A stretch of 64,000 nt of DNA, from contig JAQTZZ010000002.1 of the NCBI GenBank assembly GCA_028687545.1, forward strand, positions 139,635 to 203,634, given 5' to 3'. Positions within the stretch are counted from its first letter, which is position 1; every line of letters begins with the position of its first letter. Positions 13,101 through 62,087 of this stretch are shown here, piece after piece. Made by a program: the position numbers and the translations under genes. This stretch comes from Candidatus Wallbacteria bacterium (GTDB lineage: Bacteria; Muiribacteriota; JAQTZZ01). A model generated the notes under the pieces. It saw nothing but the letters and a program-made list of their open reading frames with translations. It made no database searches and was not told the DNA's origin.

Positions 13101-16100
13101 CAAAGCTCTGCGCAAGGATTCCTTGGCTTTCTCATTTTCGTTCATAGCGATGAAAATTTCCGCTTCGATGGACAGAAGTTCGGCGTCCTTATCACGGGCC
13201 GGAACAGGTTCCAGGGTTTTAAGGGCCTGATGGGTGTTTTCACTAAGCAGATAGGCTCTGGCAAGCAGCTTGCGGCCTTCACAGTCCTGCGGGCAGATCT
13301 TCATGAAACGTTCCAGTTCCAGGATGGAATTGGCGTAATCGCACTTGGCGAAATAGCTCTGCGCAAGCAGCAGGCCGTAACGCGCTTCCCCGGTATTTAC
13401 CATCAGCTTGCGGAAAAGTTCCACGGATGTTTCCAGGTCTCCCCTTGCTCTGGCGATCAGTCCTCCCAGTTCCTCGATCCGCTGCTCTCCGGCTCCCCCT
13501 GCCTTTCCGAGCCATTCGGAGGCCTGCTCGAAATTTCCCTGCTTGTAATTCAGCAGCGAGAGGTAATATTCGGAGCCTGCATCAGGAGATTGAACCAGCA
13601 CAGCTTTGAAATCAACAAGGGCCTGATCGTATTCTCCGTTCTCGAGATGAATTTTCCCGATCTCCAGATTATTCTTGCACTTTTCAAAACAAAGGAGCGC
13701 TTTTTCCCGTTCGTTGCCCGCAAGATACAGCCTGGCAAGTTTTTCGAACATCTCAGGGGGCTTGTCGCCGGGAAAATTTTCCAGCGCTTTGACCGCACCG
13801 GTAAGATTGTTCTGCTCTTCCATGATTTGTGAAAGCATCATCCGCAAGTCCATCTGCACCGGGGATAAGAAGATGGCACGTTCCAGCAGGAATGCCGCCT
13901 TGTCCAGCTTGCCGTCCTCCCGGTAAATCATGGCCAGAAGCTGATAAGGGAGAAAATTGTCAGGTTTGAGCGGGATCACTTTTTCCAGGATCTTCTCGGC
14001 TTCCCGCTTGAGCTTCCTGTCGAAATACGCGGCTGCCAGTTCGGAGAGGAGGGTAAGATTTTCCGGATCCTTATGCCTGGCCTTTTCCAGGATGGAAATG
14101 GCATCACCGGCCCTTTTGTCTTCCCTGAGCATCCGGCCGAGTTCGATGTATGAGTCCAGATAGTTAGGCAGATTCTCGATCAGTTCCTCCAGGATCTTCC
14201 TGGCTTCTTCCCGTTTGCCGGCCAGCTGATAAATCCGGGCCAGATTGTAACGCGCGCTCTCATGATACGGGTTGAGCATCAGGAGCTTTTTCACGGCTTC
14301 TTCTGCCAGGTGATAATGTCCCTGCTCGAAATAGATCCGGCTCATGAACAGCCAGGGATCCTCGCTGGACGGATGATGGCTCAGATATTCCTCGAAATCC
14401 TTCTGCGCCAGCACATGTTTTTTCAGATTGAAATTGATCTTGCCTGAGAGCAGGATATATTCAGGGTTGGGGTCAGGGGTTTCCCTCAAAAATTCCACTT
14501 TTTCCGCCGCTTTTTCGTAATTCCCGGTTTCAAGGTAGCAGACTGTCAGCAGATAACCGACATCTTCTGAAACCCGGTCCAGCTTCTCGGCTTTCTGCAG
14601 GAAGGAAACCGCATCCCCGTGACGCTTCTGATCGATCAGAATCCTGGCTGCATCGAGCAGTACCGCGAGTTTCTCCGGAGCAAGCTCCACCGCCTTATCC
14701 AGGGACTTTCTGGCCAGATCGTGTTTTTCCTGACAGGCCAGCACTCCGCCGAGCATCAGGTAAGCCTGGCTTTCGCGCTTGTCTTTACAGATTTCCCGTA
14801 GAATCTCCTCAGCCTTGGCATGGCTCCCCTTTTTCCAGTATGCATCGGCCAGTACCATGCCTGCGGAATAATTCCCGGGCCAGAGCGGCCGCAGGAGCTC
14901 AATCACCTGGCCGAATTCCTTCCTGGTCAGATAGATTCTCCCGAGAAATTCACGGACTTCAGCGTTTTCGGGCTCGAATTTCAAATATTGCCTGAAGTTC
15001 GCTTCGGCCTGGACGAAATCCTGTTTGTGATAATAAATCCTGCCTGCCTGCAGGAAAGCCTGCTTGAAGCTGGGATTCAGTTCCATCACTTTTTCCATGG
15101 CCAGCAGGGCATCCTGCTCTTTGCCAAGTTTCTGATAGACCTCGCCAATTTCAAAATAGGCCTGATATGAGGAAAAGTCGATCTCGACAGCCCTGTGGAA
15201 CTCGTTCAGAGCCTCTTCAAACAGACCCTGTTCCTTGAGTATTTTTCCCAGGTAAAAGTAAGCGTCAAAAAACTTCGGCTGATGAAGCAGGGCTTTCTGC
15301 AGAAGTTCCTTGGCGTCATTGAGCATTTTCTGTTCCTTGTAGACCATGGCCAGCCCCAGCAGCGCCTGGAAGTTTTCGGGTTCATTGTCCAGAATGGACT
15401 TGAAGAGCAGGTTGGCTTCAGTCACTTCGCCGTTGGCAAGATATGCCTGCCCCAGTTCCAGGTAAGCGCCGAAATCGCTCGGAGTTTGAGAAATTGCCGT
15501 TTTGAACGCTACTATCGCATGAGAAAGCTTGCCGCGCAGCCTGAGTATCTTTCCCAGCAGGTAATGATAACCCGGGACTTTTCGCTCTTCAGGGATTTCC
15601 CTGATGATGCGCTCAGCATCGACGACCCGGCCCAGCTCGAAATATGCCCGGACCAGTTTGAGCTTCAGCTCAGGGCTTTTCAGACCGGAGGGCAGGCCTT
15701 CCAGGAAATCGACCGCCAGCAGGTAGTTGTTCATCTCAATCAGGCAGTCGGCTTTCCGGGAATACACCTCACGGTCGGATGGAGAAATCTTCAGCGCACG
15801 GTCGTAAAGTTTCAAAGCCTCGTCGAACAGTTTCCGCTTCCTGTACGCGCTGCACATGCACAGGTAAGCATCAACGCTTTCAGGCTTGATCTCCAGAAGT
15901 TTCTTCAAAATGGAAATCCCGTCGTCAAAATTGCTGTTCCTGAAAAAGGCTTCAGCCAGCATCAGATGGAATTTCTCATTTTCCCTCTGTATGCTCAGTG
16001 CTTTCCCGAGATATTCGGTGGCCAGTTCCAGCCTGCCTGCGTTCAGGTTCGCTTCACCAAGACAGGCATAAATCTCTGCGTCCCGGTCCTTTTCCTCGAT

Positions 16101-18107
16101 CCTTTCCAGGTATTCGCAGGCGTCCTGCCATTTGGAAAGTTTGAGGCTGATGCTGCCAAGATTCCTCAAGGCTTCCAGGCATTCCGGAGCCTTAGCCAGC
16201 ACGTCCCTGAAACAGGCGTAGCCTCCTTCCAGGTCGTGTTCCTCAAGCAGCAGCTTCCCTTTGAGAAGCAGCGGATTATAATCGTCAGGCTTGAGGGTCA
16301 GGCATTTTTCGATGAAACGTCCGGCCTTGCGGTAATCTTTCTGACTGCCGGAAAGCATTGCCAGAAAATAATAGGCATCCGCATTTTCTTCGATTTCCAG
16401 GATTTTCTTAAGGTACTGTTCCGCCTGCTGAGGCTTTCCGTTCTGAAAGCAGACCTCAGCCAGTTCAGAGAGCAGATTCAGATGCCTGCTCCCGGTATCG
16501 AGCGAGACGGCCTTTTCCAGGTAATAGATCGTTTCCTCGATCAAACCCCTCTCACGGGAAATCTTTCCGAGGTAATAATAAATCTCATTCTGGTAGGGAT
16601 TGAGTTCAGCCACTTTCTTGAATTCCAGAAAGGCTTTTTCCAGGTCTTTCTGCTCAAAATAAGCCTTGGCGAGATAGAAATGCAGCCTTTCATTGAAGGG
16701 TTCATATTCAAGGGCTTTCAGCCACTCGCGGGTTGCTTCGCCGGTCTTTCCCTGTTCGTAGAAAGAGAGCCCCAGCTCGAAATAACTGCGGAAACTGTCC
16801 AGCCCCATGTTTTCCAGAATCGAGGAGGCTTTCTCGCGCACGAGCTGGGATTTGTCCTTGAGTGCTCCGATGAGAGCTTCGGTGGCTTCGCTGCTGCCTA
16901 TCCCGGCCAGGGCTTCCACAACCGCCACCCTTACTTCTTCCTGCGGATCAGACAGATATTTCATCAATTCAGGTACTGCTTCCTTATACCCCATGAATTT
17001 GATCGTGTTGATAGTTTCCACCCTGATGAAAGGTGAAGGTGATGACATTGTATTCAGGAGCAGCCGATAGATTTCTTCGCAGGGAAAATTCCGGAGAGCC
17101 TGGAGTGCGACTTTTTTCAGCTCCAGGTCATCGCTTTCCAGGGCAGAAATGAAGATGCCCTTGCTCTTCTCGTCCCCGATTTTGATCAGGGCGCTCAGGA
17201 TTTCCTTCTTCACTTCCCGATGGGTATCGTTGAATGCGTTGATCAGTGCTTCCTGTGTGGTTTCCAGGCCGAGCCGTTCCAATGCCCGGGCTGCATTCCT
17301 CCTGACTTCCCACTGGTGGTCTGCAAGGGCTTTGACCAGGTTGGGGGCAGACTTTTCGTCTGACAGTTCACCCATCGCCCAGACGCAGTTTTTCCGCACA
17401 TCAGGGTTGGAGTCCTCCATAGCTCGGATCAGAGCGTCGACAGCTGAGGAATTGCCAACTCTACCCAAGGCACGGGCTGCCAGAGAACGCACTTTACCGT
17501 TCTGGTCCTTGAGGGATTCCAGGATCGCCGGAATCGCCCGCTCGTCTCCGAGCTGAAAGAGCATTTCCAGAGCCTTGCTCCGAAGCTGCGGGGCCGGATC
17601 ATTCAAGGCGGCGATCAATGCATCGATTGAGCGCTTGTCATGGAAGACTTCCAGAGCTTCCAGCACCTGGCCTCTGACTTCCCGGTTCTCATCCGACATG
17701 ATCTGCAGCAATGGTTCCAGAGCCCGTTCGTCGCCAATGTTCTTCAGGGCATCGATTGCAGTTTTGCGTACATCGCTGTTCTGGTCTCTGAGCATCGGCA
17801 GCATGCATTCGACGCTGCCCTTGTTCCTGAATTCTCCCAGAGCCCTCGTGGCTATGATCCGGATTTCTTTGTTATTCTCCCGGAGAAGCTGCTCCAGAAC
17901 CGGTATGATTCTGGTGTCTTTCAGTTCCAGAAAAATCTCCACCACCCTGACTACAACCTGCTGGTTGAGGGTTGGGAGCAGCCTTTTAATGTCTTCGAAA
18001 TAGTCCAGCAGCCTGTTCTTGCGAATTAATTCCAAGGCTTCGAGTTTATCCAGCAGGGACGGACTTTCTAAACCCTTGATAATCTTTTCTTGTTCAGCAC
18101 TTTTCAT
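10137..18107 (-). CDS. giant (2656 aa) HEAT-repeat plus TPR-repeat protein
   Basis: Uninterrupted ORF. N-terminal ~450 aa are PBS-lyase-type HEAT repeats (DVRKTAIDALKNIGDERALEPL; NREVRGQVLEALE...). The rest is dozens of 34-aa TPR-like units (A.YYLG..Y...G....A...F.KA.E.DP). GGGGGA Shine-Dalgarno before the ATG at 18107. Confidence 0.85.
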   Translation of the reverse strand: MKSAEQEKIIKGLESPSLLDKLEALELIRKNRLLDYFEDIKRLLPTLNQQVVVRVVEIFLELKDTRIIPVLEQLLRENNKEIRIIATRALGEFRNKGSVECMLPMLRDQNSDVRKTAIDALKNIGDERALEPLLQIMSDENREVRGQVLEALEVFHDKRSIDALIAALNDPAPQLRSKALEMLFQLGDERAIPAILESLKDQNGKVRSLAARALGRVGNSSAVDALIRAMEDSNPDVRKNCVWAMGELSDEKSAPNLVKALADHQWEVRRNAARALERLGLETTQEALINAFNDTHREVKKEILSALIKIGDEKSKGIFISALESDDLELKKVALQALRNFPCEEIYRLLLNTMSSPSPFIRVETINTIKFMGYKEAVPELMKYLSDPQEEVRVAVVEALAGIGSSEATEALIGALKDKSQLVREKASSILENMGLDSFRSYFELGLSFYEQGKTGEATREWLKALEYEPFNERLHFYLAKAYFEQKDLEKAFLEFKKVAELNPYQNEIYYYLGKISRERGLIEETIYYLEKAVSLDTGSRHLNLLSELAEVCFQNGKPQQAEQYLKKILEIEENADAYYFLAMLSGSQKDYRKAGRFIEKCLTLKPDDYNPLLLKGKLLLEEHDLEGGYACFRDVLAKAPECLEALRNLGSISLKLSKWQDACEYLERIEEKDRDAEIYACLGEANLNAGRLELATEYLGKALSIQRENEKFHLMLAEAFFRNSNFDDGISILKKLLEIKPESVDAYLCMCSAYRKRKLFDEALKLYDRALKISPSDREVYSRKADCLIEMNNYLLAVDFLEGLPSGLKSPELKLKLVRAYFELGRVVDAERIIREIPEERKVPGYHYLLGKILRLRGKLSHAIVAFKTAISQTPSDFGAYLELGQAYLANGEVTEANLLFKSILDNEPENFQALLGLAMVYKEQKMLNDAKELLQKALLHQPKFFDAYFYLGKILKEQGLFEEALNEFHRAVEIDFSSYQAYFEIGEVYQKLGKEQDALLAMEKVMELNPSFKQAFLQAGRIYYHKQDFVQAEANFRQYLKFEPENAEVREFLGRIYLTRKEFGQVIELLRPLWPGNYSAGMVLADAYWKKGSHAKAEEILREICKDKRESQAYLMLGGVLACQEKHDLARKSLDKAVELAPEKLAVLLDAARILIDQKRHGDAVSFLQKAEKLDRVSEDVGYLLTVCYLETGNYEKAAEKVEFLRETPDPNPEYILLSGKINFNLKKHVLAQKDFEEYLSHHPSSEDPWLFMSRIYFEQGHYHLAEEAVKKLLMLNPYHESARYNLARIYQLAGKREEARKILEELIENLPNYLDSYIELGRMLREDKRAGDAISILEKARHKDPENLTLLSELAAAYFDRKLKREAEKILEKVIPLKPDNFLPYQLLAMIYREDGKLDKAAFLLERAIFLSPVQMDLRMMLSQIMEEQNNLTGAVKALENFPGDKPPEMFEKLARLYLAGNEREKALLCFEKCKNNLEIGKIHLENGEYDQALVDFKAVLVQSPDAGSEYYLSLLNYKQGNFEQASEWLGKAGGAGEQRIEELGGLIARARGDLETSVELFRKLMVNTGEARYGLLLAQSYFAKCDYANSILELERFMKICPQDCEGRKLLARAYLLSENTHQALKTLEPVPARDKDAELLSIEAEIFIAMNENEKAKESLRRALNFNTDDVGVRSRLAQVYFKMGRYAEAVHEYRAVVERKETPEILMNLGEAHYYNGDFEDALFKFQKLKELLPAEPRVRIYLARLYREKERFSEAEIELQELRQMEKESTPTVDYELGLISFKLGDLNKAADLFRKVYSLNNAFEQVNLYLAKLRLKEDQIDDAIPFLDEQSRLTPDDRETNLLLAKCYFEKKKYDSAQSLFKRLIERWPETAEAYYWLARIYWQQNMLDAATRNMERAIQYNPRFKPAMHDIGKILIERDRIDEAISYLEKATYLDEASYDLRITLGTAYEKAHMLNEAIAQYEKARNLSIGEPEAYYLSGYVYQKLGKPDKAYQNLLKVIEMTGGYKDTRYRLALLEKGMGKTSEAKENLEKYLEKNGEDINAFFELGTIYYQEHDFNLALKHLEQVVLNDPNRAEAYYYLGMIYLERKLLEDSIRLFQKAIEVSPNFVEAYFEMGRIHRSRGDLKAALPCLERAVHLRMNNQEFLREMGEVYLSMKRFKEAEELYQKLLYLDPNSFEAFYRLGTIEATKKNPEGALDYFKKARELKEKDPDLLLWMGKTYWHLRDFEKSVTVLSKIKEYYPRNSVEAYKLLADIYYSRDMISETVAEIKKAMEVSQDHELKIRLARCYVRIGKLDDALPLLHEVLGNFPDSQESLEIIGNIYFKKNRFQEALRYFQKLLLEREDDEELLRKEAECYEGLNEDEKARQIYQKLSEKRPQDYRIHMGMGKLFLRLKMNDNAIVVLEKCRKIEPGKAEPYIYLGDLYVGKGMMEEAISYYKKAIEVEPVSLKARLSLARIYKDKKLYDRAITAYKDIIRENPQETEAHNMLAQIYLDRELYDYALEELQKVIGLMPEGAQGYFMLAEVYKELSRFEEAAKMLEEGLRRDSRNLDAHFSLSSLYLKKGRLDDAVLEYKRIIALDENNVNAHFYLGKAYRDKGMIDEAVAEFIVVVNLAPVDSEITREAQEMLKPKRVNTTFWKDLEAEKE

Positions 18108-18279: not shown

Positions 18280-18399
18280 TCAGATGTGTTTGAATACCGG
18301 TTTCAGGGCATCAATGGCCTTGAAAAAAAGTTCCACCCCGACGAAAGATACGATCAGCGGGAGAAAAATGCAGAGCATGACCAGTAAAAGCAGTTCCAT
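18280..18399 (-). CDS. possible 39-aa small membrane protein (MELLLLVMLCIFLPLIVSFVGVELFFKAIDALKPVFKHI)
   Basis: ATG at 18397-18399 preceded by AAGGGGATAAG (Shine-Dalgarno-like); a single predicted transmembrane helix. An alternative upstream start at 18462 would give 60 aa. Confidence 0.25.
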   Translation of the reverse strand: MELLLLVMLCIFLPLIVSFVGVELFFKAIDALKPVFKHI

Positions 18400-50604: not shown

Positions 50605-52182
50605 ATGAAACTATCTGTTTTAATTTCACTGCTGTTCATGTCCGTCGTTTCGGCGGGACCGCTTTCGCTTACTCCCATGCAGAAAGCTTCCGACTTTTAT
50701 GCCCTGACCAAGATCATGGAAACAGGTTATGCGATGCTGGAATACAAGAAAACCAATATCCTCAAGGAAGATTACCTGCAGATAAAGAAGCGGTATTTCT
50801 TCGATATCTCGAAAACCAGAACTGATGCGGAATACTATACATTGCTTTTCAAGTACATCCATGAATTCAAGGACGGCCACCTTTACCTGGACGGTGTGTT
50901 CAATCTGGACCTGGCAATGCTGCCGGTAGATTTTCGGTATCTTGAGGGAAAAGTGGTGGTATCCGACATCTACATTACTGGGACAAAGTTCGGAATCGGG
51001 GATGAACTGATCGAATTCGACGGCAAACCGACCGCATCTGTCCTGGAAGAGCTGGCTCCTTATTACACCGGCGGAGGCTCAGCCGGACATCAGCTGAAGG
51101 GGATATTGCAGGCAATCGGTTACCGCTCCAGCAACAGGCTGATGCCTGCTGACGGGAGCAGCGCGGTTCTCAAGCTGAAAAGCAGGAAAACCGGCTCCGA
51201 GTATTCCGATACAGAGGCTTGGGTCATCAAGAAATACAGCGAGATCTATTCCAGGGGATTCAGGCTGCCAGCCAGGCTCCACTCGTTCTATGAAAACGAC
51301 GGGAATTGGAGTTTTGACCCTCTGTATGTGCAGACGCTGATCAGGAAGCAGCTTATGGGCAGTCCTGTAGCCGGCCAGAGGCTTGAAGATAACCTGACCG
51401 CAGAAATAATACTGTACACCTCCGGATCGAAACAGTACAAAATCGGCAGGATCAGGGTTCCGGACTATGATGGATGGGCTATTGAATCGTTCGACACTCT
51501 GCTCAGCGGACTTGCTGACTGCGACGGCCTGATTTTGGACCAGAGGGACAACCCGGGCGGTTACATCGATCTCTGCCAGAACCTGGTTTCTCGTTTCCTG
51601 GATGCACCTCTGACAAATCTGGAGTTTTCCGTTCCGCTCAACCGGCACTGGCTGAATAATGTTGAACTCAAGCTCAAGTTGTATACTCAAGCCCAGTATC
51701 CTGCTGATCAGATCGCCGTGGTAAAGACCTGCAGGGATACGATGTACGCAAATGCCAATGCAGGCAAGAAAATGAGTGATTTCATACCGTTCTTCTATGC
51801 AAGCAAACTCCAACCTGCTGAGCTGAAATTTCTTAAGCCGGTGCTGGTCCTGATTGACTCAGGCTGCTTCAGTTGCGGGGATCTGGTGCCTGCATCGTTC
51901 AGGCAGAAAGACTGGATGGGCAAACTCAAGCTTTTCGGAGAGACAACAGGCGCCGGAGGAGGAAATGTAGTCCAAGCCGGCCCGCTTCCTCTCAGTGAAA
52001 CAATGTTCCACGTCACAGCCAGCCTGGCCCGCTGGGGTGGAAAAAACATCATCGAAAACAATGGGATCAGCCCGGATGTGGTTTCCCCATATACAATCTC
52101 CGACCTGTACAGCGAGGCTGTAGAAAATAAAAACACATACCTGGAAAAGGCCTGTGCCGAACTGGTCAAGATGATAAACTGA
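50605..52182 (+). CDS. S41-family peptidase (C-terminal processing protease-like), secreted
   Basis: Signal peptide MKLSVLISLLFMSVVSAG; S41-type DQRDNPGGYIDL motif. Start set at the ATG at 50605 after GGGGAG. Confidence 0.7.
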   Translation: MKLSVLISLLFMSVVSAGPLSLTPMQKASDFYALTKIMETGYAMLEYKKTNILKEDYLQIKKRYFFDISKTRTDAEYYTLLFKYIHEFKDGHLYLDGVFNLDLAMLPVDFRYLEGKVVVSDIYITGTKFGIGDELIEFDGKPTASVLEELAPYYTGGGSAGHQLKGILQAIGYRSSNRLMPADGSSAVLKLKSRKTGSEYSDTEAWVIKKYSEIYSRGFRLPARLHSFYENDGNWSFDPLYVQTLIRKQLMGSPVAGQRLEDNLTAEIILYTSGSKQYKIGRIRVPDYDGWAIESFDTLLSGLADCDGLILDQRDNPGGYIDLCQNLVSRFLDAPLTNLEFSVPLNRHWLNNVELKLKLYTQAQYPADQIAVVKTCRDTMYANANAGKKMSDFIPFFYASKLQPAELKFLKPVLVLIDSGCFSCGDLVPASFRQKDWMGKLKLFGETTGAGGGNVVQAGPLPLSETMFHVTASLARWGGKNIIENNGISPDVVSPYTISDLYSEAVENKNTYLEKACAELVKMIN

Positions 52183-52357
52183 TTCTTATTTTTTCTCCAG
52201 CAGAATCCACTCATCCTGGAAATTCACGATGTCTTCGATGAACTTCTTGTAACTCGCGTATTCAGAAGCCGGATAGGTGTCGCCGACTCTCTTGAAATCC
52301 AGGTTGACTTTCAAAATACTGCGGCTGCTTGTATCGAATGAGGCTGTAAACTCCATG
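52182..52357. repeat. direct repeat copy 1 (176 bp, identical to 60035..60210)
   Basis: Base-by-base comparison shows an exact 176-nt identity, same orientation; identity ends abruptly after ...GTAAACTCCATG. Confidence 0.95.
52186..52357 (-). pseudogene. orphan 3'-terminal fragment (last 57 codons) of the DUF3857/transglutaminase-like gene at 60039..62087
   Basis: Encodes MEFTASFDTSSRSILKVNLDFKRVGDTYPASEYASYKKFIEDIVNFQDEWILLEKK, identical to the C-terminus of the intact gene; upstream codons are unrelated. Confidence 0.75.
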
Positions 52358-52481
52358 TTCAGATCGACCTGCTGAAAATATTCAATTTCTTCAAAGTTTG
52401 AATACACCTCCTTTATTAGAGTATCCGCTCAAATCCACGATTCCGGCTTTACACTTATCGGATGTGCCAGCATGGCTCAAG

Positions 52482-53606
52482 CTAACGGGTAATCTCTCCC
52501 TGTTTAGCGGGCTCCAGAATCACTGTCTGGGTCGGAAATGCAAATTCGACCCCCAGCGCTTTAAAGGAATCCGCAATTTGAAGATTTATCTCTTGATGAA
52601 TGTCCATATATTTATTGTAGTCATTGCCGTTTATCAAATAAGAAGTCTCTATGATCAGGTTGAAATCTCCATACTCTGCGAAATGGCAGCGGTTAAACAT
52701 CGTATCTTCAGTGTTATCAATGATTGCTTTGATGACTGAAGGAATTTTCCTCAATTTGTCAGTGCCAGTCTGATAAGTAACTCCTAACCGGAACGTCACT
52801 CGCCGACGGGTCATTTTCTTGTAATTCCTAACTCTGCTGCCAGTCAGATCCGAATTCGATAAAATTATTTCTTCCCCGTTGAGGCTTGCCAGCCTTGTTG
52901 TTTTAATGCCGATATGCTCCACACTCCCCAGAAAATCTCCAATTACGATAAAATCTCCTTCCTCAAACGGCCTGTCAAAGAAAATCACGAAATAATTAAA
53001 CAAATCATTCAGTATGTTCTGAGAAGCCAGGGCTATTGCCACACCGCCGATACCAAGCCCGGTAATCAGCGTGGTCAGGTTGAAGCCAAGATTATCAAGG
53101 ATCAGGGTGAAACAAAGCATCCAGAAAAACATTTTCAGAATACCGACAATCCCTGCGGAAGTGGTTGGGGATATTCTGGATTCTTCTTTTTTCAGCCAGC
53201 GCTCCTCAAAAAAATAGACTGCAACGCAAATGGCAAATCTCGTAGTCTGGACAATCACAAAGATCAGGCCAATCCAGTCAACCAGTCTTTTTACCGCAGG
53301 ATTAAGATCAAGTTCATTTACGGAGAAATAAAAAGCTATGTAAAAAAGAAGCGGGAAGAGATATTTTTCCACCAGTTTAGAAATAATGCTGTCCTGGCTG
53401 AGTTTTCCTGTTATAACCAGAGATTTAAGGCGACATAGAATAAATTTCTTCACAAATCGCATGCAGGAAAAAGCGAAAAGCAGAGTGATGAAAGCTATCG
53501 CATAACGGGAAAAAGGATTGCCCAGGAACACCCAGGACCAGATTTCATTCCTGAAAAATAACTCCTCCATTAAAGACAAAAGATTGTCGAAATGTTGTTG
53601 AAGCAT
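52482..53606 (-). CDS. small-conductance mechanosensitive channel (MscS family)
   Basis: MscS pore helix/beta domain signature (LGIGGVAIALASQNILNDLF...GDFIVIGDFLGSVEHIGIKTTRL); 374 aa. Confidence 0.85.
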   Translation of the reverse strand: MLQQHFDNLLSLMEELFFRNEIWSWVFLGNPFSRYAIAFITLLFAFSCMRFVKKFILCRLKSLVITGKLSQDSIISKLVEKYLFPLLFYIAFYFSVNELDLNPAVKRLVDWIGLIFVIVQTTRFAICVAVYFFEERWLKKEESRISPTTSAGIVGILKMFFWMLCFTLILDNLGFNLTTLITGLGIGGVAIALASQNILNDLFNYFVIFFDRPFEEGDFIVIGDFLGSVEHIGIKTTRLASLNGEEIILSNSDLTGSRVRNYKKMTRRRVTFRLGVTYQTGTDKLRKIPSVIKAIIDNTEDTMFNRCHFAEYGDFNLIIETSYLINGNDYNKYMDIHQEINLQIADSFKALGVEFAFPTQTVILEPAKQGEITR

Positions 53607-53656
53607 GCCTAACTCCTTATGGACATTACTGGCACAAAACGATCATGCCTGGCGCT

Positions 53657-55009
53657 CTAAAACGCATAGTATCTCACCCATACATAGACTGCCGACATTG
53701 TTACGGTCATAACCATTACCGGCATCCCGTAACGCATGAACTCGACAAAGGTGATCTTCCGGCCGTGCTTCTCGGAAATCCCGGCCACTACCACATTGGC
53801 GGAAGCGCCGATGATCGTGCCGTTTCCCCCGAGACACGCACCCAGGGCCAGTGACCACCAGAGTGGCAGCAGATCCGCATGGTGGAGAAGATCGGTTCCG
53901 GATACACCCGGCCAGAGCTGTTTCGCCATGTCGATGATCAGAGGGGTCATGGTAGCAACATAGGGGATATTGTCTATGAAGGCTGAGGCAAAGGCAGAAA
54001 ACCACAGGATCCCCATGCTGGCAGCGAGAAGGTTGCCTCTTGTGAACTCCAGTACTTTCACCGACATCCAGCTGATCAGCCCCACTTTCACCACTGCCCC
54101 GATGATGATGAACAGGCCGATGAAGAAAAACAGGGTGCCCCATTCGGCTTCAGCCAGGATATGATGAGGGTCATGCGTTCCTGAGATCAGGAGCAGCAGG
54201 CTGGCCCCGAAGAGCGCGACAGTGGCAGGCTCCAGATGAAGGGCTCCATGGGCTACAAATCCGGTCAGGGTCAGGCCGAGTACGAACAGGGATTTCTTCA
54301 GCATCAGGTGGTTTTTGATCACTATCGTTTCGTCCATCAGCATGATCCTCTGTTTCAACTCTTCTCTGGTTTTGAGCTTCTTGCCCCAGATGAATTTAAC
54401 TGCCAGGCAGAAGACCAGCATGATGACCAATATCACTGGAGTCAATTGATAGATGAAGTCCATGAATGTCAGCTCAGCTTTGGATGCGATCATGATGTTG
54501 GGCGGGTCCCCGATCAGGGTGGCAGTGCCGCCGATGTTGGAAGCCAGGGTGCAGGCGATCAGGTAGGGGACGAAATCAACTTCCAGCGCTTCGGCAATGT
54601 AGACGATCACCGGCGCGATGAGAAGGACTGTGGTGACATTGTCCAGAAAGGCGCTCAGCACGGCAGTTACAACAGAGAAGATCACCATGATGCTGATCGG
54701 GTCTCCCTTTCCAAGCTTGGCGCTTCTGATGGCTACGTATTCGAAAACTCCGGTCGGCCGCATCAGGTTGATGATCACCATCATGGAGAGGAGCAGGAAT
54801 ATCACGTTCCAGTCCACACCCAGTTCTTCGACATGAAAGGCTTCGTGCTGTGAAAGCAGCTTGAGCACAAGGACCAGGGAAGCCCCGAACATTGCTACAA
54901 TGGTTTTATGGACTCTCTCGGAAATGATGATTGCGTAAGAAATAATGAATATGGCTGTAGCTGTCCAGAACAGGCCGTCCATGACTATAGGTTGAAGATT
55001 ATTTTGCAT
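53657..55009 (-). CDS. ArsB/NhaD-superfamily ion transporter
   Basis: 450 aa, ~12 TM helices; ArsB/NhaD permease-like repeats (SAFLDNVTTVLLIAPV; SAFIDNIPYVATMTPL). Confidence 0.75.
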   Translation of the reverse strand: MQNNLQPIVMDGLFWTATAIFIISYAIIISERVHKTIVAMFGASLVLVLKLLSQHEAFHVEELGVDWNVIFLLLSMMVIINLMRPTGVFEYVAIRSAKLGKGDPISIMVIFSVVTAVLSAFLDNVTTVLLIAPVIVYIAEALEVDFVPYLIACTLASNIGGTATLIGDPPNIMIASKAELTFMDFIYQLTPVILVIMLVFCLAVKFIWGKKLKTREELKQRIMLMDETIVIKNHLMLKKSLFVLGLTLTGFVAHGALHLEPATVALFGASLLLLISGTHDPHHILAEAEWGTLFFFIGLFIIIGAVVKVGLISWMSVKVLEFTRGNLLAASMGILWFSAFASAFIDNIPYVATMTPLIIDMAKQLWPGVSGTDLLHHADLLPLWWSLALGACLGGNGTIIGASANVVVAGISEKHGRKITFVEFMRYGMPVMVMTVTMSAVYVWVRYYAF

Positions 55010-55114
55010 TCATCCTCCACAAGCCGGCAGATGCGTGAGCGGCTATTTATCAACTTCTTCAGGCAATATGTCGGCAGCGCATAGCTTTCTGGAATCAGCA
55101 TCGATTGCCAGAAT

Positions 55115-57334
55115 TTATTCCCTTGATTGGGATGCGGTGATCAGGTTTTCCAGCAAATCAAGCAGTCCGGAACAACTCACCAGATTGAATCTGGCAATAG
55201 ACTGATCCATGCCGATTCTGATGGAATAGGCATCCGGCGGAAGCACTCTGAAAAGGTCTTCATCAGTCACGTCATCACCGGCAGCCATGATGAAATCAGG
55301 GTTTTCCTTGAGCATGAAGTCCATGGCTCCGGAGCCTTTGTTCACTCCCGCATTCCTGACTTCAACCACTTTGTTCCCTGACATGATCTGAACATCAATG
55401 TTGGCCGTGAAATTCACCAGCTGATCGGTTAATTCCTTGGAAAGCAGTGAAGCGGATTCCTGATCCGCCATCCGGTAATGCCAGACCAGGGAAAAATCCT
55501 TTTCCTCAATGAATGAACCTGGTAAACGATCAACGTGCAATTGCAGAATCGGATAAATATGCTCTTTCCAGGTGCAGGTCATGGGTTTAGACAGAATCCA
55601 GTCACTGCCCCGCATCTTCAGCCAGGCCCCGTGTTCAGCGACAAATCCGATTTTGATACCTGGGAACCATTTATCCAGAGTTTTCCTGTCCCTGCCTGTT
55701 ACAATGATCACTTCCGTATCCCGAATGTCCGTTAACTCCTTGAGGATCTTCAGCACTCTCTGAGTAGGTATGGCTGCTGAAGGCTCCTTGGCAAAAGGGA
55801 CCAGAGTGCCGTCATAATCAAGAAAAATGGCTCTCCGCTCAGATTTGTTGAAATCCGAGCACAGTTTATTTCGGATATTTTTGGATATAAGCCGGGCTTT
55901 TAAAGTATCCTGTTCGGCCCTGATGCCGACTAGAGTCCCGCAGAAATCCTCAGCCCAGCGGATTATGTTGTAGCGTTGAAGCCTTGCCAGCATGGGTCTG
56001 TTGCGGCTGATCTGTTCTTCCTTCGGCATTTCCAGGGCATTTTTTATCGCTGCTGCTATTTCATCCCTGTGATTCGGATTGACGATGATTGCTTCTCGCA
56101 TTTCAGGGGCTGCTCCCGCCATTTCGCTCAAGATCAGCACCCCGTCCCCATCTTTCCCATGGGATGCCAGATATTCCTTGGCCACCAGATTCATTCCATC
56201 CCTCAGCGGGGTAATCAGAGCTACATCGCTGATTCCGTAGACTGCGGATAATGCCTTGAAAGACAATGATCGGAATTGATAAATAACCGGATTCCAGTGG
56301 ATCGTGCTGTATTTTCCGTTGAGCCTGCCCACATATTCGTCGATCTGCTTTTTCAGCTGATGATATTGTTCGACTTCTACCCTGGATGGAACTATTACCA
56401 TGAAAAGAGACACTTTTCCATGCCACTGAGGGTTCTTCTCCAGGAACAGCTCAAACGCCTCCAGCCTGTTTATTATGCCTTTGACATAGTCCAGGCGATC
56501 TACAGAAAGTATGGCTTTAAGTTGCCCGAGCTTGCTTCTGAGTTTGCCGATCTCTTCCCGGACCTCTGGAGTTCCAGCGCTTTTATAGAATAGATCATAA
56601 TCAATCCCCATGGGAAATGTCTTGGCTTTTACGATCCTGTCTTCAATGGTCAGGCGGCCGAAATTGTTTTCATGGCCGAGTATTCTTGATACGCATCTCA
56701 AAAAATACTGGGTATAATCCTGGGTATGAAATCCGATCAGATTGGCTCCCAGCAGCCCTTCCAGAATTTCTCTGCGCCAGCCGGTGGGCAGCAGCCGGAA
56801 AATCTCAAATGACGGGAATGGGATATGCAGGAAAAAACCGATCTGCGCATCAGGTTTCTTTTCCCTGATCAGTTTGGGAAGCAGCATCAGATGGTAGTCG
56901 TGCACCCAGACGATGTCATCATCGTCCATGATTTCCAGGATGGCATCCCTGAACAGCATGTTCACACTTCTATAATTCTGCCAGGATTTCTCTTTATATA
57001 CTGCCAGAGATGGAAAGTACTGAAATAAAGGCCAGATAGTCTTATTGCAGAAACCAAGATAAAATTCATCCATCACTTTCTGAGATAGAAAAATCGGATA
57101 AGCCTGATGGTTTTTAATTAAATCAGCCTTGAGATGTTCCCTCAGCTTTTTTTCCGCACTGATACCGGGCCAGCCTACCCAGAAATAGCCTTTTTCTTTT
57201 ATTGAATTGTTCGGTGAGGCCAGATAGGATCTCATTCCTGTAGCGAGCCCGCCGGAGCTTTTATGAAACTTGATCTTACGCTTTTCCCTGGCAAGAGTGA
57301 TCGGCAGGCGATTGGACACTATGATGAACTTCAT
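55115..57334 (-). CDS. bifunctional trehalose-6-phosphate synthase (GT20) / trehalose-6-phosphate phosphatase (HAD)
   Basis: N-terminal OtsA-like domain (IIVSNRLPI; [10 protein letters not shown]) and C-terminal HAD phosphatase ([13 protein letters not shown]; [10 protein letters not shown]); 739 aa. Confidence 0.85.
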
Positions 57335-57546
57335 TCAACCTCCAGAACGGAATATTATCTAAACCAAATTTCTATCAGCACCATCACAGTAAGAGCAAGC
57401 CGGAAAAATGAGGATGTTAATTTTATTTGTTGTGGCTACAGGTTTGTTTTCGACAGGAGCAGAAAAACTGTTTCATTATAATTTAATACTATCTTTTCTA
57501 TTTTCATGTGTCAATAATATTTATCGATCAGTTTTACTTAGTTTAT

Positions 57547-57575
57547 TGACCACCTTGTTTTCTAAGGTTATAATA
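57547..57575 (+). promoter_or_regulatory. putative sigma70 promoter upstream of the TetR gene
   Basis: TTGACC (57547-57552), 17-nt spacer, TATAAT (57570-57575); ~195 nt upstream of the TetR ATG. Confidence 0.35.
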
Positions 57576-57769
57576 ATATTGTAAGTTGTCGATAATTAAC
57601 TTAGAAGGCAATAGCAATACTGCAGGAAAAGACAAGGACCTTTGACAGAGGGGCCTTGAAGCTGGCAAAATAGTACTCTGGTCACCGGACTAATCCAAAT
57701 GGGGGGTCAGCGCCCGAGCATGTAATTGAACAGCCGGACACTGAGCCGGCCGATCAAGAGGAATATAAA

Positions 57770-58423
57770 ATGCAGACAAATGTGATCAAGGAACGCAGCA
57801 GAAGAATCGAAACGAAAGCCATTCGCCCAAAAGCCACTCTCAGAAAGACCACCGTGATCAGACGCAGGGAACTGATTCTTACCGCTCGCTCGATCATCTT
57901 CAACGAAGGCACCGGCAATTTCACCTTGCGCCGCCTGGCTGATGAAGTCGGGCTCACTGAAGCAGCAATCTACCGTCATTTCGATAACAAGGAAGAGATT
58001 CTCCTTGCCCTGGTGGATTTCATGTATGACGGCTGGGACAGAAAACTCAACGCACTCCTGGAAAAGAAAATCCCTCCAAGAGAGAAACTGATGAAGCTCG
58101 GAAAAATCCACCTGACTCAGCTGCTCAAGCATCAGTTCAACCCAGTCATGCTCTTCTCCGAAGCCGTTGACCCAAGGCAGCCGAAAATCGCCGAAGCAAT
58201 CATTATGAAAAGGAAACGCCTGTTCGAAGTGATCGGAATCATCGTCAGGGAAGGTTGTGATACCGGCATCTTCAGATCCAGGCTCGATGTCCAGGCTGCT
58301 GTCCTGGCTCTGTCAGGGGTGCTGCAGAACTGCATCATCCGCTGGACTCTCACCAAGAAAACTAAATTTCTCAAGAGCGAGATGGAGCGAGCCATGGCTC
58401 TGATCATTGACGGACTGAGCTGA
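57770..58423 (+). CDS. TetR/AcrR-family transcriptional regulator
   Basis: N-terminal helix-turn-helix (LILTARSIIFNEGTGNFTLRRLADEVGLTEAAIYRHFDNKEEIL); AGAGGA Shine-Dalgarno; 217 aa. Confidence 0.85.
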   Translation: MQTNVIKERSRRIETKAIRPKATLRKTTVIRRRELILTARSIIFNEGTGNFTLRRLADEVGLTEAAIYRHFDNKEEILLALVDFMYDGWDRKLNALLEKKIPPREKLMKLGKIHLTQLLKHQFNPVMLFSEAVDPRQPKIAEAIIMKRKRLFEVIGIIVREGCDTGIFRSRLDVQAAVLALSGVLQNCIIRWTLTKKTKFLKSEMERAMALIIDGLS

Positions 58424-58456
58424 TGTGCAAATCCAAGACACGAAAAGGAGCTGGTG

Positions 58457-58537
58457 ATGGATATCAACTTTTCCTTTGCGATTTTATGGCTCATCATAGT
58501 TGGTGTTTTGGTAGCCATTATAAAAAAATACAAATGA
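58457..58537 (+). CDS. 26-aa hydrophobic peptide (MDINFSFAILWLIIVGVLVAIIKKYK)
   Basis: ATG preceded by AAAGGAG; a single TM-like helix with a basic C-terminus; paralogous to the peptide at 59903..59986. Confidence 0.4.
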   Translation: MDINFSFAILWLIIVGVLVAIIKKYK

Positions 58538-58561
58538 TCACAATGAAGTCATACCACTGAA

Positions 58562-59842
58562 ATGAAGAAACGACTGATCGAAGAAGGTTTACTATTACTC
58601 GGCGTCACCAAATGGGTGGTTTTTTCGGTAATTATTGGCTGCATTGTCGGGGTATCGACTGCGATTTTTTTAAAGACCTTGAACTGGAGCATTTCCGCAG
58701 CTGCCAGATATCATTATTACTTTCTGCTCATGCCACTCGCTTTCTTTGTCAGCGCATTGCTGATCAAGTATCTTTCACCAGGCGCAGAGGGCCATGGAAC
58801 CGAGAAAGTAATCGAAGCCATACATCAGAACGATTCCATCATCAATGCATCAGTAGTTCCGGTCAAGCTGCTGGCCACTGTGATCACGATTGCCTGCGGA
58901 GGCTCAGCCGGAAAAGAAGGTCCCTGCGCCCAGATAGGAGCCGGGCTGGCTTCCCTGTTTGCCAGAATTTTCAGATTTGACAGCGAGGACCGGAAAAAAC
59001 TTGTCGTCTGCGGTATCAGCGCCGGCTTTGCATCAGTATTCGGAACTCCGATAGCAGGCGCGATTTTCGGAGTTGAAGTTTTGTTCGTAGGAAGCCTTCT
59101 CTACGATGTTCTCCTGCCATCCTTTATCGCAGGCATTATCAGTTTCCACATCACTTCAATGTTTGGCTGCACTTACTTCTATCATCCTCTGAACATCTCT
59201 CCCAATCTGGACAATTTGTCTTTCATCTGGGTTCTTGTATCAGGTGTGGTTTTCGGAATTGTTTCAGTGATGCTGATAGAACTGCTGAGAATGGGAAGCA
59301 AGCTGTCTAAAAGAATTCATTGCTGGAGCCCGCTCAAGGGAATAGCCGGTGGAACTATCCTGGTGATCCTGGCCTCATTGTTTTCAACGCAATATTTAGG
59401 ATTGGGGTTGAGCACGATCGAAAGTTGCCTGCAGGGAGTGAAAGTCAGCGGGTTTGCCTTTTTCCTCAAGGCGCTTTTTACCAGCCTGACCCTTAACTTT
59501 GGAGGAAGCGGAGGTATAGTCACACCCATTTTTTTCATAGGCAGCACATCCGGGAATCTTTTCGCCCAGATCTTCAATCTGAATATTGGCATCTTTTCAG
59601 CCTTGGGGTTTGTAGCCCTGCTGGCTGGTGCTGCCAATACGCCGATCGCGGCAAGCATCATGTCCATTGAGCTGTTTGGCCCTACGATCGCGCCTTATGC
59701 GGCGATCGCCTGCGTGGTCAGCTTTCTGATCAGCGGCCACCGCAGCGTGTATCCATCGCAAATCCTGGCGTTCAGAAAATCTAAGTTCATTGATGTCGAG
59801 ACAGGCAAGGTGATGGCTGAAGTCAGAGTCGAGTTTCCCTAG
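58562..59842 (+). CDS. ClC-family chloride channel / H+-Cl- antiporter
   Basis: ClC selectivity-filter-like motifs GGSAGKEGP and GTPIAGAIFGVEV; 426 aa, multi-pass. Confidence 0.85.
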   Translation: MKKRLIEEGLLLLGVTKWVVFSVIIGCIVGVSTAIFLKTLNWSISAAARYHYYFLLMPLAFFVSALLIKYLSPGAEGHGTEKVIEAIHQNDSIINASVVPVKLLATVITIACGGSAGKEGPCAQIGAGLASLFARIFRFDSEDRKKLVVCGISAGFASVFGTPIAGAIFGVEVLFVGSLLYDVLLPSFIAGIISFHITSMFGCTYFYHPLNISPNLDNLSFIWVLVSGVVFGIVSVMLIELLRMGSKLSKRIHCWSPLKGIAGGTILVILASLFSTQYLGLGLSTIESCLQGVKVSGFAFFLKALFTSLTLNFGGSGGIVTPIFFIGSTSGNLFAQIFNLNIGIFSALGFVALLAGAANTPIAASIMSIELFGPTIAPYAAIACVVSFLISGHRSVYPSQILAFRKSKFIDVETGKVMAEVRVEFP

Positions 59843-59902
59843 TCTCCAAATTATAATGCAGAGTCAGATAGATTGCGGTAACTTTAGTCTAAAGGAGGAA
59901 AA

Positions 59903-59986
59903 ATGGATTTGAATCTTCTCGAAATGCTTGGCTTGCTTGTCGCAGTGGCAATATTCGCATCTTTTCTAAGAAAACACCTGAAGTAA
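59903..59986 (+). CDS. 27-aa hydrophobic peptide (MDLNLLEMLGLLVAVAIFASFLRKHLK)
   Basis: Strong Shine-Dalgarno AAAGGAGGA 6 nt before the ATG; same MD.N / TM helix / basic tail layout as 58457..58537; followed by a hairpin. Confidence 0.45.
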   Translation: MDLNLLEMLGLLVAVAIFASFLRKHLK

Positions 59987-60004: not shown

Positions 60005-60024
60005 GGGCGGTCCTTGAACCGCCC
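60005..60024. terminator. GC-rich hairpin between convergent genes
   Basis: 7-bp stem GGGCGGT / ACCGCCC with a 6-nt loop, between the small peptide ORF and the stop of the - strand DUF3857 gene; no immediately adjacent T-run. Confidence 0.35.
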
Positions 60025-60034
60025 CTGCGTGGTA

Positions 60035-60210
60035 ATTCTTATTTTTTCTCCAGCAGAATCCACTCATCCTGGAAATTCACGATGTCTTCGATGAACTTCT
60101 TGTAACTCGCGTATTCAGAAGCCGGATAGGTGTCGCCGACTCTCTTGAAATCCAGGTTGACTTTCAAAATACTGCGGCTGCTTGTATCGAATGAGGCTGT
60201 AAACTCCATG
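60035..60210. repeat. direct repeat copy 2 (176 bp, identical to 52182..52357); this copy is the 3' end of the intact gene
   Basis: Exact identity to 52182..52357 by direct comparison. Confidence 0.95.
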
Positions 60211-62087
60211 CCGCCGAAATTCAGCTTCCTCTTCTCCGGGCAAAAGGCCAGTCCGTAATCTTTGGGCAGCTTCACCTGGTAGACAAAGTGACTCTCAGTC
60301 ACACCATGGAAAAACATCGGGTAAGCTCTCTGTTCCCTGGCCACTTCAGAGGCTGAAAAGAGATAGAATTCAGGAAGCTGGAACGCCAGCATGGATCCTG
60401 CCCTCTTCGGGTATTCAGAAGCACTGAATGAGTAAGAAATTCCCAGATTGTTCGTGAGATCTCCCAGATTCTGGTATTCATATTTTTGGAGTACAGCCCT
60501 GGGATGGATTCTGGCGATACTCTTCTCCCACTCCTTATCCAGTTCATTTTTTGAAAGATAATAATTCTTGCGGTAATTATTCTGAGTGCTGCCTTCGAAT
60601 TTGTCTGTCACAGAGGCTCTCAGATCTCCGTTTTCGTTCAGATTCAGGTCGAAAGTGCTGAAACTCTTGGCAGGCACATAAGGCAGGTCGACCAGTTTCC
60701 GCTCCGCGAGCGACAAAGCCGGAGAACCCTGGCAGCCGCCCGGGAAATCACCCATAGTCATGGAGTCGTCATTGACATAGATCAGTTTGCCGTTGTCCAG
60801 CTTTAATCCAAGATTGCCGAACTGTTCGACACACGGCACAGAAACCTCAAGTGAACCTGAATTGCGGTCCGAGAGCAGCAGAAAGTCGCTCTTCACTCCA
60901 AGTTCGGAAAGCAGAGCATGAAACAGAAACGTCTTGTCAACTTTGGAGCCCATTTTCTTTTCGTAAATGACGGCCGGATCCAGCGGATAGTAATGAGTAT
61001 TGGAGAGGCTGACCCAGGCTGTGACTATATTCTTGGTCAGGAACTGGTAGAGTGCGGCAATCTTTTCTTCCCGGCTTTTTGCGGAAGCCGTGATGGTCTC
61101 GCAGGCTGATTTAAGGGCAGGGGAACTTTTATCCCAGGCGGAATATTTTGCCGCGAGAGCTGCTGCGATCCCTGCATAGTCATAGGCAGGCGAGACGGTC
61201 AGAGTCGGAAATACATCCGAAACGGGCGGTGTGTTTTCCTCTTCCTGGTAAGGCGGGATTTTCTTCATTTCAAAACTGTATGCAACTCCTGCGCCTGAGC
61301 CGGACTTTTTCAGGAGATTCCTGTCCGCATTCCGAAGTGACAGATTCAGTTTGAGCCCTGCCGGAGCTTCGATGCGGACTCTGGCGCTGAGATACGGTAC
61401 GGACGAAGTGAAGGATTCGACAAAACATTGAGGATTGTCCAGGATGTCCCTGGAAGTATATCGCTCTTCATAGGAATACTCCACGAAAGATCCGCTCTCC
61501 ACCTTGGGGATGATCACCTTGACTTCCCTGGCTTTTTCATAAAGCGGATAAGAGGAATAAGTGGAAGTATCTGTGACTGCATAGTCATTGGCATATGTGA
61601 TCCTGCCGTCAGTGATCGAGCGGGCGTACCTGATCGTGAAATCCGACCTGCCCGGGATATAGTTGAGATAGAAGGTCCCGATGCTCTTGCCGCCTTCTTT
61701 GTTGACCCTGCCCAGGAAATGATGGGAAAAAACGGCTCCGCCGTCGGTCTTATAGGTAATGGTGGTGTCCGACATGAAGCAGATATAATCATACTGGTCG
61801 TATTCTTTGAAGTCCTTGCGGGAAATCACTTTTCTCACCAGCTGATCCTTGATCTCTTCAGGCTTGTAGACACCCTTTTCCTCGTATTCGCGGAAAAGGT
61901 CCAGCCTGGTCAGCTTGTCCTGTTCGATCGTGATGTTCTTGCCGGTTTCCCTCTCGCAGAACACGATCGCGCCCTTGCTGTACTCCACTAAACGGCCGTT
62001 GATTTCCTTGCCGTCCTTGAGTATCAGCAGGTCGGCACAGGCAGAGAACCCGAAAACAAGCAGAAGAGCTAAAAGGATGTTTCTCAT
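60039..62087 (-). CDS. DUF3857-like / transglutaminase-like domain lipoprotein (682 aa); the transglutaminase core appears to lack the Cys
   Basis: Lipoprotein-type signal peptide (MRNILLALLLVFGFSAC). The region that aligns with the neighbour's GDC segment reads VDKTFLFHALLSELGVKSD; 4-bp overlap with the upstream paralog. Confidence 0.7.
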   Translation of the reverse strand: MRNILLALLLVFGFSACADLLILKDGKEINGRLVEYSKGAIVFCERETGKNITIEQDKLTRLDLFREYEEKGVYKPEEIKDQLVRKVISRKDFKEYDQYDYICFMSDTTITYKTDGGAVFSHHFLGRVNKEGGKSIGTFYLNYIPGRSDFTIRYARSITDGRITYANDYAVTDTSTYSSYPLYEKAREVKVIIPKVESGSFVEYSYEERYTSRDILDNPQCFVESFTSSVPYLSARVRIEAPAGLKLNLSLRNADRNLLKKSGSGAGVAYSFEMKKIPPYQEEENTPPVSDVFPTLTVSPAYDYAGIAAALAAKYSAWDKSSPALKSACETITASAKSREEKIAALYQFLTKNIVTAWVSLSNTHYYPLDPAVIYEKKMGSKVDKTFLFHALLSELGVKSDFLLLSDRNSGSLEVSVPCVEQFGNLGLKLDNGKLIYVNDDSMTMGDFPGGCQGSPALSLAERKLVDLPYVPAKSFSTFDLNLNENGDLRASVTDKFEGSTQNNYRKNYYLSKNELDKEWEKSIARIHPRAVLQKYEYQNLGDLTNNLGISYSFSASEYPKRAGSMLAFQLPEFYLFSASEVAREQRAYPMFFHGVTESHFVYQVKLPKDYGLAFCPEKRKLNFGGMEFTASFDTSSRSILKVNLDFKRVGDTYPASEYASYKKFIEDIVNFQDEWILLEKK

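Follow-up and report, generated by a model that had tools for sequence, protein, structure and literature searches.

Two small hydrophobic reading frames with strong ribosome-binding sites bracket a ClC gene in a Candidatus Wallbacteria genome

The locus described here lies in a 64-kb stretch of Candidatus Wallbacteria DNA (assembly GCA_028687545.1, contig JAQTZZ010000002.1, positions 139,635 to 203,634 of the forward strand), hereafter called the window, whose own coordinates are used throughout. A CLC-family gene, referred to below as ClC, occupies positions 58562-59842 on the plus strand; it encodes 426 amino acids, matches PF00654 with 259 bits (E=8.8e-77), carries no CBS domains and is not preceded by a Shine-Dalgarno (SD) sequence. 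On the same strand, two very short open reading frames (ORFs) stand immediately before and after it. Mini-ORF1 (58457-58537) starts with the ATG at 58457, stops with the TGA at 58535-58537 and encodes a peptide of 26 amino acids, MDINFSFAILWLIIVGVLVAIIKKYK, hereafter mini1; its SD sequence, AAGGAG, lies at 58445-58450 with a 6-nt spacer to the ATG. Mini-ORF2 (59903-59986) runs from the ATG at 59903 to the TAA at 59984-59986 and encodes 27 amino acids, MDLNLLEMLGLLVAVAIFASFLRKHLK, hereafter mini2; it is preceded by the SD sequence AAGGAGG at 59892-59898, with a spacer of 4 nt. Both are intergenic and follow the strand of the apparent operon, the first within the 138-nt spacer between a tetR gene and ClC, the second within the 196-nt spacer 3' of ClC. 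The two peptides share one layout, namely an acidic N-terminus reading M-D-(I/L)-N, a run of 16-20 consecutive hydrophobic residues and a basic C-terminus (KKYK in mini1, RKHLK in mini2), with 17-residue Kyte-Doolittle maxima of 2.99 and 2.36, respectively. Each is predicted to be a single-pass membrane peptide, and for mini1 the prediction places the N-terminus outside and the basic tail inside.

Re-reading of the sequence confirmed the coordinates, lengths, SD strings and layout given in the initial annotation, as well as its statement that the two frames bracket the ClC gene. The frames had also been called unannotated, and this is correct since neither peptide was present in a collection of 15 billion proteins on exact look-up. 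Among curated families, Pfam gave no match at E<=10 other than a spurious one to Nlp36 (12.5 bits), NCBIfam gave none at E<=1, and neither peptide matched the KdpF profile (Pfam PF09604) or another curated small-protein family. Besides, an independent Logan assembly (SRR22315507_23692) is identical to window positions 52328-58936 with zero mismatches, hence the mini-ORF1 region is not an assembly error.

The combination of a strong ribosome-binding site (RBS) and a hydrophobic segment is exceptional in the window. All ATG-started ORFs of 18-60 amino acids on both strands were collected (n=621), among which 14 encoded a transmembrane (TM)-like 17-residue window and 17 were preceded by an SD match of at least 5 nt at 3-11 nt spacing; only mini-ORF1 and mini-ORF2 combined the two features. 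Then, the whole intergenic DNA of the window (4.9 kb) was submitted to 2000 first-order Markov shuffles and scored for ORFs of 18-60 amino acids with a 6-nt SD, an ATG and a TM-like segment. On average, a replicate contained 0.005 such ORFs, the probability of two or more being 0.0005, and 20000 shuffles of either ClC flank yielded zero ORFs with both an SD and a TM-like segment. The SD matches themselves, of 6 and 7 nt, rank among the longest in a comparison with the window's 42 large genes; most of those that start with ATG show a match of 4-7 nt. Codon usage was scored with a log-odds model built from 40 genes of the window, which gave +1.1 for mini-ORF1 and +2.7 for mini-ORF2, against 7.6 for the average gene window. 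Windows of 26 codons taken in frame from ClC had a mean of 3.0 with a standard deviation of 2.9, a range within which both scores fall; they are similar to the scores of TM segments of ClC. The GC contents (31% and 41%, vs 49%) and the GC contents at third codon positions (0.42 and 0.44, vs a gene average of 0.58) are low.

These figures bear on the view that the frames are fortuitous and unexpressed, the SD-like hexamers and hydrophobic frames being coincidences of AT-rich spacers. Such a view draws on the single genome in which the locus is found, on the lack of conservation and on the shortness of the ORFs, which precludes a strong coding statistic. However, the rate at which the joint features arose in shuffled DNA and the absence of anything comparable elsewhere in the 64 kb make it quite improbable. 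The proposal of the initial annotation that these are real small membrane proteins thus stands as regards their genuine appearance, which is illustrated by the SD sequences, the TM and charge layout, the chance tests and the codon scores, whereas its suggestion that they are accessory subunits of the channel fares poorly as regards conservation, which is discussed below. Judging from these sequence features, both mini-ORFs are likely to be translated into membrane peptides.

Another reading frame competes for the same spacer. An ORF of 45 amino acids (58423-58560, +) fills the tetR-ClC interval in another frame, its ATG overlapping the tetR stop (TGATG) and its stop lying 1 nt before the ClC ATG. 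Although its fit to the spacer is exact, this ORF is probably not coding and was rejected as a gene, since 99.9% of in-frame windows exceed its codon score of -5.8 and no SD precedes it. Elsewhere in the window, a further intergenic candidate for a small membrane ORF was noticed on the minus strand at 18280-18399, upstream of the gene for a protein of 2656 amino acids (10137-18107). It encodes 39 amino acids, MELLLLVMLCIFLPLIVSFVGVELFFKAIDALKPVFKHI, with a Kyte-Doolittle maximum of 3.06, and is preceded by only a weak SD (AAGG).

The mini-ORFs and ClC appear to be parts of a single transcription unit. The best sigma-70-like promoter candidate upstream of tetR lies at 57546-57574 (+), where TTGACC and TATAAT are separated by 17 nt (11/12 matches), and it is probably the operon promoter. 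It precedes a TetR/AcrR-family regulator gene (57770-58423, +; PF00440, E=1.7e-11, plus TetR C-terminal domains), which is the first gene of the apparent operon. No promoter-like site was found on the plus strand between tetR and mini-ORF1 or directly upstream of either mini-ORF. Downstream, a GC-rich hairpin at 60005-60024 (GGGCGGT / ACCGCCC with a 6-nt loop, assigned to no strand) separates the operon from a convergent DUF3857/transglutaminase-like gene and is terminator-like, with a weak T-run. From this arrangement, tetR, mini-ORF1, ClC and mini-ORF2 would form one operon ending at the hairpin, and mini-ORF2, lying between the ClC stop and the hairpin, would therefore be co-transcribed with ClC.

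Other kinds of element were considered for the two spacers and rejected. A structured RNA or riboswitch is unlikely because Rfam gave no match at the gathering threshold in the 64 kb and because the spacers fold in an ordinary manner compared with shuffled sequences (minimum free energy z-scores of +0.48 and -0.54). Direct DNA repeats flanking ClC were dismissed as well, as the two spacers have no direct or inverted repeat in common.

The missing SD of ClC, together with a mini-ORF1 stop codon only 24 nt upstream of its start, first hinted at translational coupling. It could thus be proposed that only the act of translation matters, mini-ORF1 feeding ribosomes to ClC through termination-reinitiation and mini-ORF2 protecting or tuning the 3' end of the mRNA. 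This would explain why ClC has no SD while most ATG-started genes of the window have one. However, 52 of the 74 ClC homologues inspected also have no SD, none of them with an upstream mini-ORF; SD-less initiation is therefore normal for this gene, coupling is not needed for ClC translation, and an obligatory coupling of ClC to mini-ORF1 was rejected. The ClC start was not found to be sequestered by any structure, there is no gene downstream of mini-ORF2, and the TM helices with their basic tails would be left unexplained. A role restricted to translation is hence decidedly improbable.

The two peptides had been described as paralogous, which our comparisons do not support. BLASTP of mini1 against mini2 gave E=6, and local alignment of the spacer DNA scored at the shuffle mean (P=0.42). 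When aligned without gaps, the peptides are identical at 6 positions and score 32 with BLOSUM62, which corresponds to P=2e-4 when whole peptides are shuffled; when the N-terminus, TM segment and tail are shuffled apart, the value becomes P=0.018, mostly due to D2 and N4. The score between mini1 and mini2 exceeds that of either against 87 TM-like windows taken from the local ClC, CitMHS and MscS genes, control windows which have no start codon or basic tail. The shared layout is real, yet it is expected of any single-pass peptide with its N-terminus out and C-terminus in under the positive-inside rule. As far as the sequences go, common descent of the two is neither established nor excluded.

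Mini-ORF1, ClC and mini-ORF2 share one frame (position mod 3 = 2), which is probably a coincidence, with a chance of 1 in 9. Read-through or recoding that would fuse the three was rejected because two TGA codons lie in frame between mini-ORF1 and ClC, followed by TAG, TAA and TAG between ClC and mini-ORF2; TGA is also the tetR stop, therefore the standard code applies. The common frame also bears on the idea that the mini-ORFs are relics, mini-ORF2 being either a detached C-terminal helix of ClC or the 5' end, RBS included, of the DUF5752 gene found after ClC in the closest relatives, and mini-ORF1 the remnant of a former neighbour. Indeed, long-form ClC homologues carry a tail of the type ...KSLIGLLxxI..KK, and residues 3-14 of mini2 align with residues 16-27 of the DUF5752 protein of a related locus (L082) with 8/12 positions matching, in frame. 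Against this, the closest ClC relatives are of the short form and three in-frame stops separate ClC from mini-ORF2. Specific searches did not recover such ancestors either: a hidden Markov model (HMM) of 65 ClC tails scored mini2 at -0.8 bits (E=210), an HMM of 120 DUF5752 proteins gave no match at E<=100, and DNA alignment to the DUF5752 genes gave P=0.14. Likewise, with upstream neighbours and the signal anchor of DUF6448, a family found beside TetR homologues, as possible sources of mini-ORF1, only hydrophobic matches at E=0.28 were obtained, and DNA alignment to upstream neighbours gave P=0.5-0.7. Such relics are extremely improbable.

Regarding the ClC protein itself, it has a Voltage_CLC domain and the gating-glutamate motif, GKEGP, which is invariant in the subfamily alignment. 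The clade to which it belongs is CBS-less and strongly conserved (58-77% identity) over Omnitrophota, Desulfobacterota, Nitrospirota, Bacteroidota and others, and it carries an invariant GHGTEKV motif. We take this motif to correspond to GSGIPE of CLC-ec1; at the position following E172, the site of the internal proton-transfer glutamate in CLC-ec1, there is presumably a valine. The closest solved structure is the CLC-F fluoride/proton antiporter 6d0j (E=1e-40), with CLC-ec1 at about 1e-20. ClC lacks the hallmarks of the CLC-F group: the position aligned to the CLC-F-specific GGEVTP reads GGIVTP, with an isoleucine where 6d0j has a glutamate, and no fluoride riboswitch was detected by Rfam in the window.

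The surroundings of this gene were compared over 83 loci, comprising 80 genome loci (the best of roughly 590 genome hits), one metagenome locus and two Logan contigs, with ClC identities of 53-77%; the metagenome scan gave this single locus, at 53%. The nearest relatives of ClC lie in trehalose-synthesis operons that contain Glyco_transf_20 (OtsA-like), Trehalose_PPase (OtsB-like), ClC and DUF5752 genes. Examples are L082 (1-4973), L001 (311-3641), in which TreT comes next after DUF5752, the P0006 contig and L025 (1238-4347), the last of which shows an alternative trehalose context with an amylase-family, trehalose-synthase-like gene upstream of ClC. In the window, an OtsA/OtsB fusion gene is divergent from tetR-ClC. 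A genomic link between the ClC clade and the compatible solute trehalose is thus conserved in the closest relatives, and we know of no earlier description of it.

The operon is itself part of a 7.85-kb segment delimited by a perfect direct repeat of 176 nt (52182-52357 and 60035-60210, 7853 nt apart), through which the DUF3857/transglutaminase-like gene (60039-62087, minus strand) is duplicated over its final 56 codons, its stop codon and a further 4 nt. Inside it are genes for an MscS-type channel, a CitMHS/ArsB-type transporter, the trehalose-6-phosphate synthase/phosphatase fusion and TetR, followed by mini-ORF1, ClC and mini-ORF2. This gene content and the presence of the nearest ClC relatives in trehalose operons make the segment look like an osmotic or ion-homeostasis module. 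It contains no integrase or transposase, and its GC profile is unremarkable. The Logan contig ends at 52328, i.e., 30 nt inside the inner edge of the first repeat copy, which is where a k=31 assembly graph would branch if the repeat is genuine. The segment may have originated as an acquired island for osmoadaptation or through a segmental insertion, unless the arrangement reflects a problem of assembly.

The peptides were also compared with toxins. Type I toxins such as TisB, DinQ, ShoB and Ibs have 19-30 amino acids and combine a hydrophobic helix with an end that is polar or charged. Mini1 and mini2 match them in size and in their hydrophobic helix with a charged end, and, being enclosed in a segment bracketed by a perfect 176-nt repeat that may be acquired DNA, they might stabilize this segment or act under stress. 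However, type I toxins are transcribed as units of their own, come with antisense RNAs and have occluded RBSs, whereas the mini-ORFs lie within an operon behind open, strong SDs. They have no promoter of their own, no structured 5' untranslated region and no evident antisense gene; the sole antisense promoter-like site near mini-ORF1 is weak (9/12 match) and lies inside ClC. Judged by these promoter, folding and antisense features, a toxin-like function is very improbable.

Small membrane proteins co-encoded with transporters form an established class, which includes KdpF, AcrZ, MgtS and CydX (PMC12648545). KdpF, a stabilizing single-helix subunit of the KdpFABC K+ pump with 29 amino acids, is like mini1 and mini2 shorter than 30 amino acids and shares its operon with an ion transporter, one that is linked to osmotic and ion homeostasis (PMC12648545). 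Unlike them, KdpF is widely conserved, occurs as a single peptide and has a P-type ATPase as partner, and there is no sequence similarity. AcrZ, MgtS, CydX and YohP resemble mini1 and mini2 in having fewer than 50 amino acids, one TM helix, a strong RBS and a history of being missed by annotation; members of this group are often encoded beside, or co-regulated with, the transporter or oxidase that they bind (PMC12648545, PMC7549839). They differ in having been validated by tagging, ribosome profiling and co-purification and in being mostly conserved in a clade, and none of them is known to target a CLC protein. In eukaryotes, the CLC beta-subunits barttin, Ostm1 and GlialCAM are accessory proteins with small TM parts that bind CLC dimers and control their stability, trafficking or gating (PMC4188032). 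They far exceed mini1 and mini2 in size, cross the membrane once or twice and have extramembrane domains; their sequences are not related to those of the two peptides, and they are specific to eukaryotes. In the literature searched, neither a partner of a prokaryotic CLC protein nor a small protein associated with a bacterial CLC was found.

In the light of these precedents, we tentatively favor, at somewhat less than an even chance, the reading in which mini1 and mini2 are genuine, lineage-specific small membrane proteins that are co-expressed with ClC and play a role like that of KdpF, AcrZ or MgtS. Under this reading, ribosomes would initiate on both ORFs at their own strong RBSs within the TetR-controlled tetR-ClC transcript, and the peptides would be expected to be more abundant than ClC because the latter has no SD. 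Peptides of 26-27 amino acids could be inserted post-translationally, as established for YohP, a small membrane protein of 27 amino acids (PMC7549839). Once inserted, each would form one TM helix with the short acidic N-terminus outside and the basic C-terminal tail in the cytoplasm. This helix could then pack against the ClC dimer, or against another transporter of the segment, so as to stabilize or tune it. As a partner, the ClC dimer would require the fewest assumptions; that the partner is ClC itself is nevertheless a narrower claim, which we consider rather doubtful.

Several observations weigh against the favored reading. ORF scans (ATG, GTG or TTG starts), tblastn and blastp over the 83 ClC loci and 10 TetR-homologue loci recovered no homologue of either peptide, nor did the exact look-up in the 15-billion-protein collection. 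The closest ClC relatives sit in operons without the mini peptides, AT-rich intergenic DNA (31-41% GC) readily encodes hydrophobic, Lys-rich peptides, and the locus is known from one genome, so that purifying selection cannot be shown. Finally, chloride or ClC partners do not figure in a review on small membrane proteins of bacteria from 2025 (PMC12648545).

The comparison with relatives defines how these points should be read. In the closest ones (74-77% ClC identity), the gaps are of 0-36 nt on each side of ClC, which leaves no room for mini-ORFs; as these relatives function without them, the mini peptides cannot be obligatory subunits of the ClC subfamily. Like ClC, the regulator is 100% identical to a protein from a Candidatus Wallbacteria metagenome-assembled genome; beyond this, the next TetR relative has 51% identity, and the TetR relatives adjoin DUF6448, hemerythrin or flavodiiron genes, never ClC. 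The tetR-mini-ORF1-ClC-mini-ORF2 arrangement is thus unique in the data compared. A single further contig carries this TetR, and over 6.6 kb the two sequences are 100% identical; this one other copy of the locus therefore offers no population variation for a dN/dS analysis. Conservation beside related ClC genes, by which the initial annotation had suggested that the mini-ORFs be judged, was not found in the 83 loci, a comparison of low power that involves other phyla and a different operon context. It has little power because the databases hold no close relative of the locus; absence from distant loci therefore indicates lineage specificity and not lack of function.

The same data suit the proposal that mini-ORF1 and mini-ORF2 are translated but young, having arisen de novo from AT-rich spacers, and have no dedicated partner, being generic peptides that insert into membranes, neutral or mildly stress-related, and that simply travel with the operon. 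Both are orphans in every search, their GC and third-position GC contents are low and their codon scores only intermediate. Moreover, random hydrophobic peptides reportedly acquire membrane effects readily. However, this proposal has to account for two near-consensus SDs at good spacing that flank one gene, for which the shuffles described above gave P=0.0005. That two strong RBSs are kept despite their cost in translation capacity suggests selection. Recent origin without a dedicated partner is unlikely on balance.

Whether ClC genes elsewhere are accompanied by comparable peptides was also considered. No credible flanking small TM ORF is present in 79 of the 83 loci, i.e., such ORFs do not generally co-occur with the ClC subfamily. 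In the other four (L025, L027, L008 and L001), Omnitrophota ClC genes are accompanied, next to ClC or at the end of its operon, by small single-TM ORFs of 38-52 amino acids with basic tails, unrelated to mini1 and mini2; this frequency is a plain count. Three of these ORFs form a family of 38-47 amino acids with a basic tail that begins MK[LF]SGWIFM. In L025 (2885-3001), the member of 38 amino acids, MKFSGWIFMFCSWGAIISLMIFAYSKVLSAKKKKEKKI, is located between the trehalose-synthase-like amylase gene and ClC and overlaps the ClC ATG; that of L027 (2016-2159) comes 193 nt after ClC, and that of L001 (3513-3641) ends the ClC-DUF5752-TreT operon. A second family of 42-52 amino acids, with the motif ...F(F/S)xIxYAII(K/H)GR... 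and a basic, Gln-rich tail, is represented in L008 (62-220), where it ends 7 nt before ClC, and in L027 (2165-2293), the two aligning at E=6e-5. The ORFs of both families are without a match in Pfam or NCBIfam. They are like mini1 and mini2 in their single TM segment, basic tail and ClC company, and unlike them in their size and variable positions, with no detectable sequence similarity. Small membrane peptides therefore recur in ClC/trehalose operons, which is a weak positive indication. It leads to a broader proposal, in which ClC would have dedicated single-pass partner peptides and unrelated families would have been recruited independently in the ClC/trehalose operons of Wallbacteria and Omnitrophota; we regard it as distinctly unlikely.

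Annotation systematically passes over small membrane proteins, though they often tune transporters. If mini1 and mini2 turned out to be only young orphan ORFs, they would still provide a clean example of de novo membrane peptides with strong RBSs in operon spacers. If they do bind ClC, prokaryotes would have their first equivalents of the eukaryotic CLC beta-subunits, and the peptides would offer a simple two- or three-component system for the modulation of CLC stability or gating by a single helix. In that case, CLC function would also be linked to trehalose osmoadaptation in uncultured phyla and, if the peptides were recruited independently, this would point to a general, overlooked need of the ClC clade for a membrane helper.

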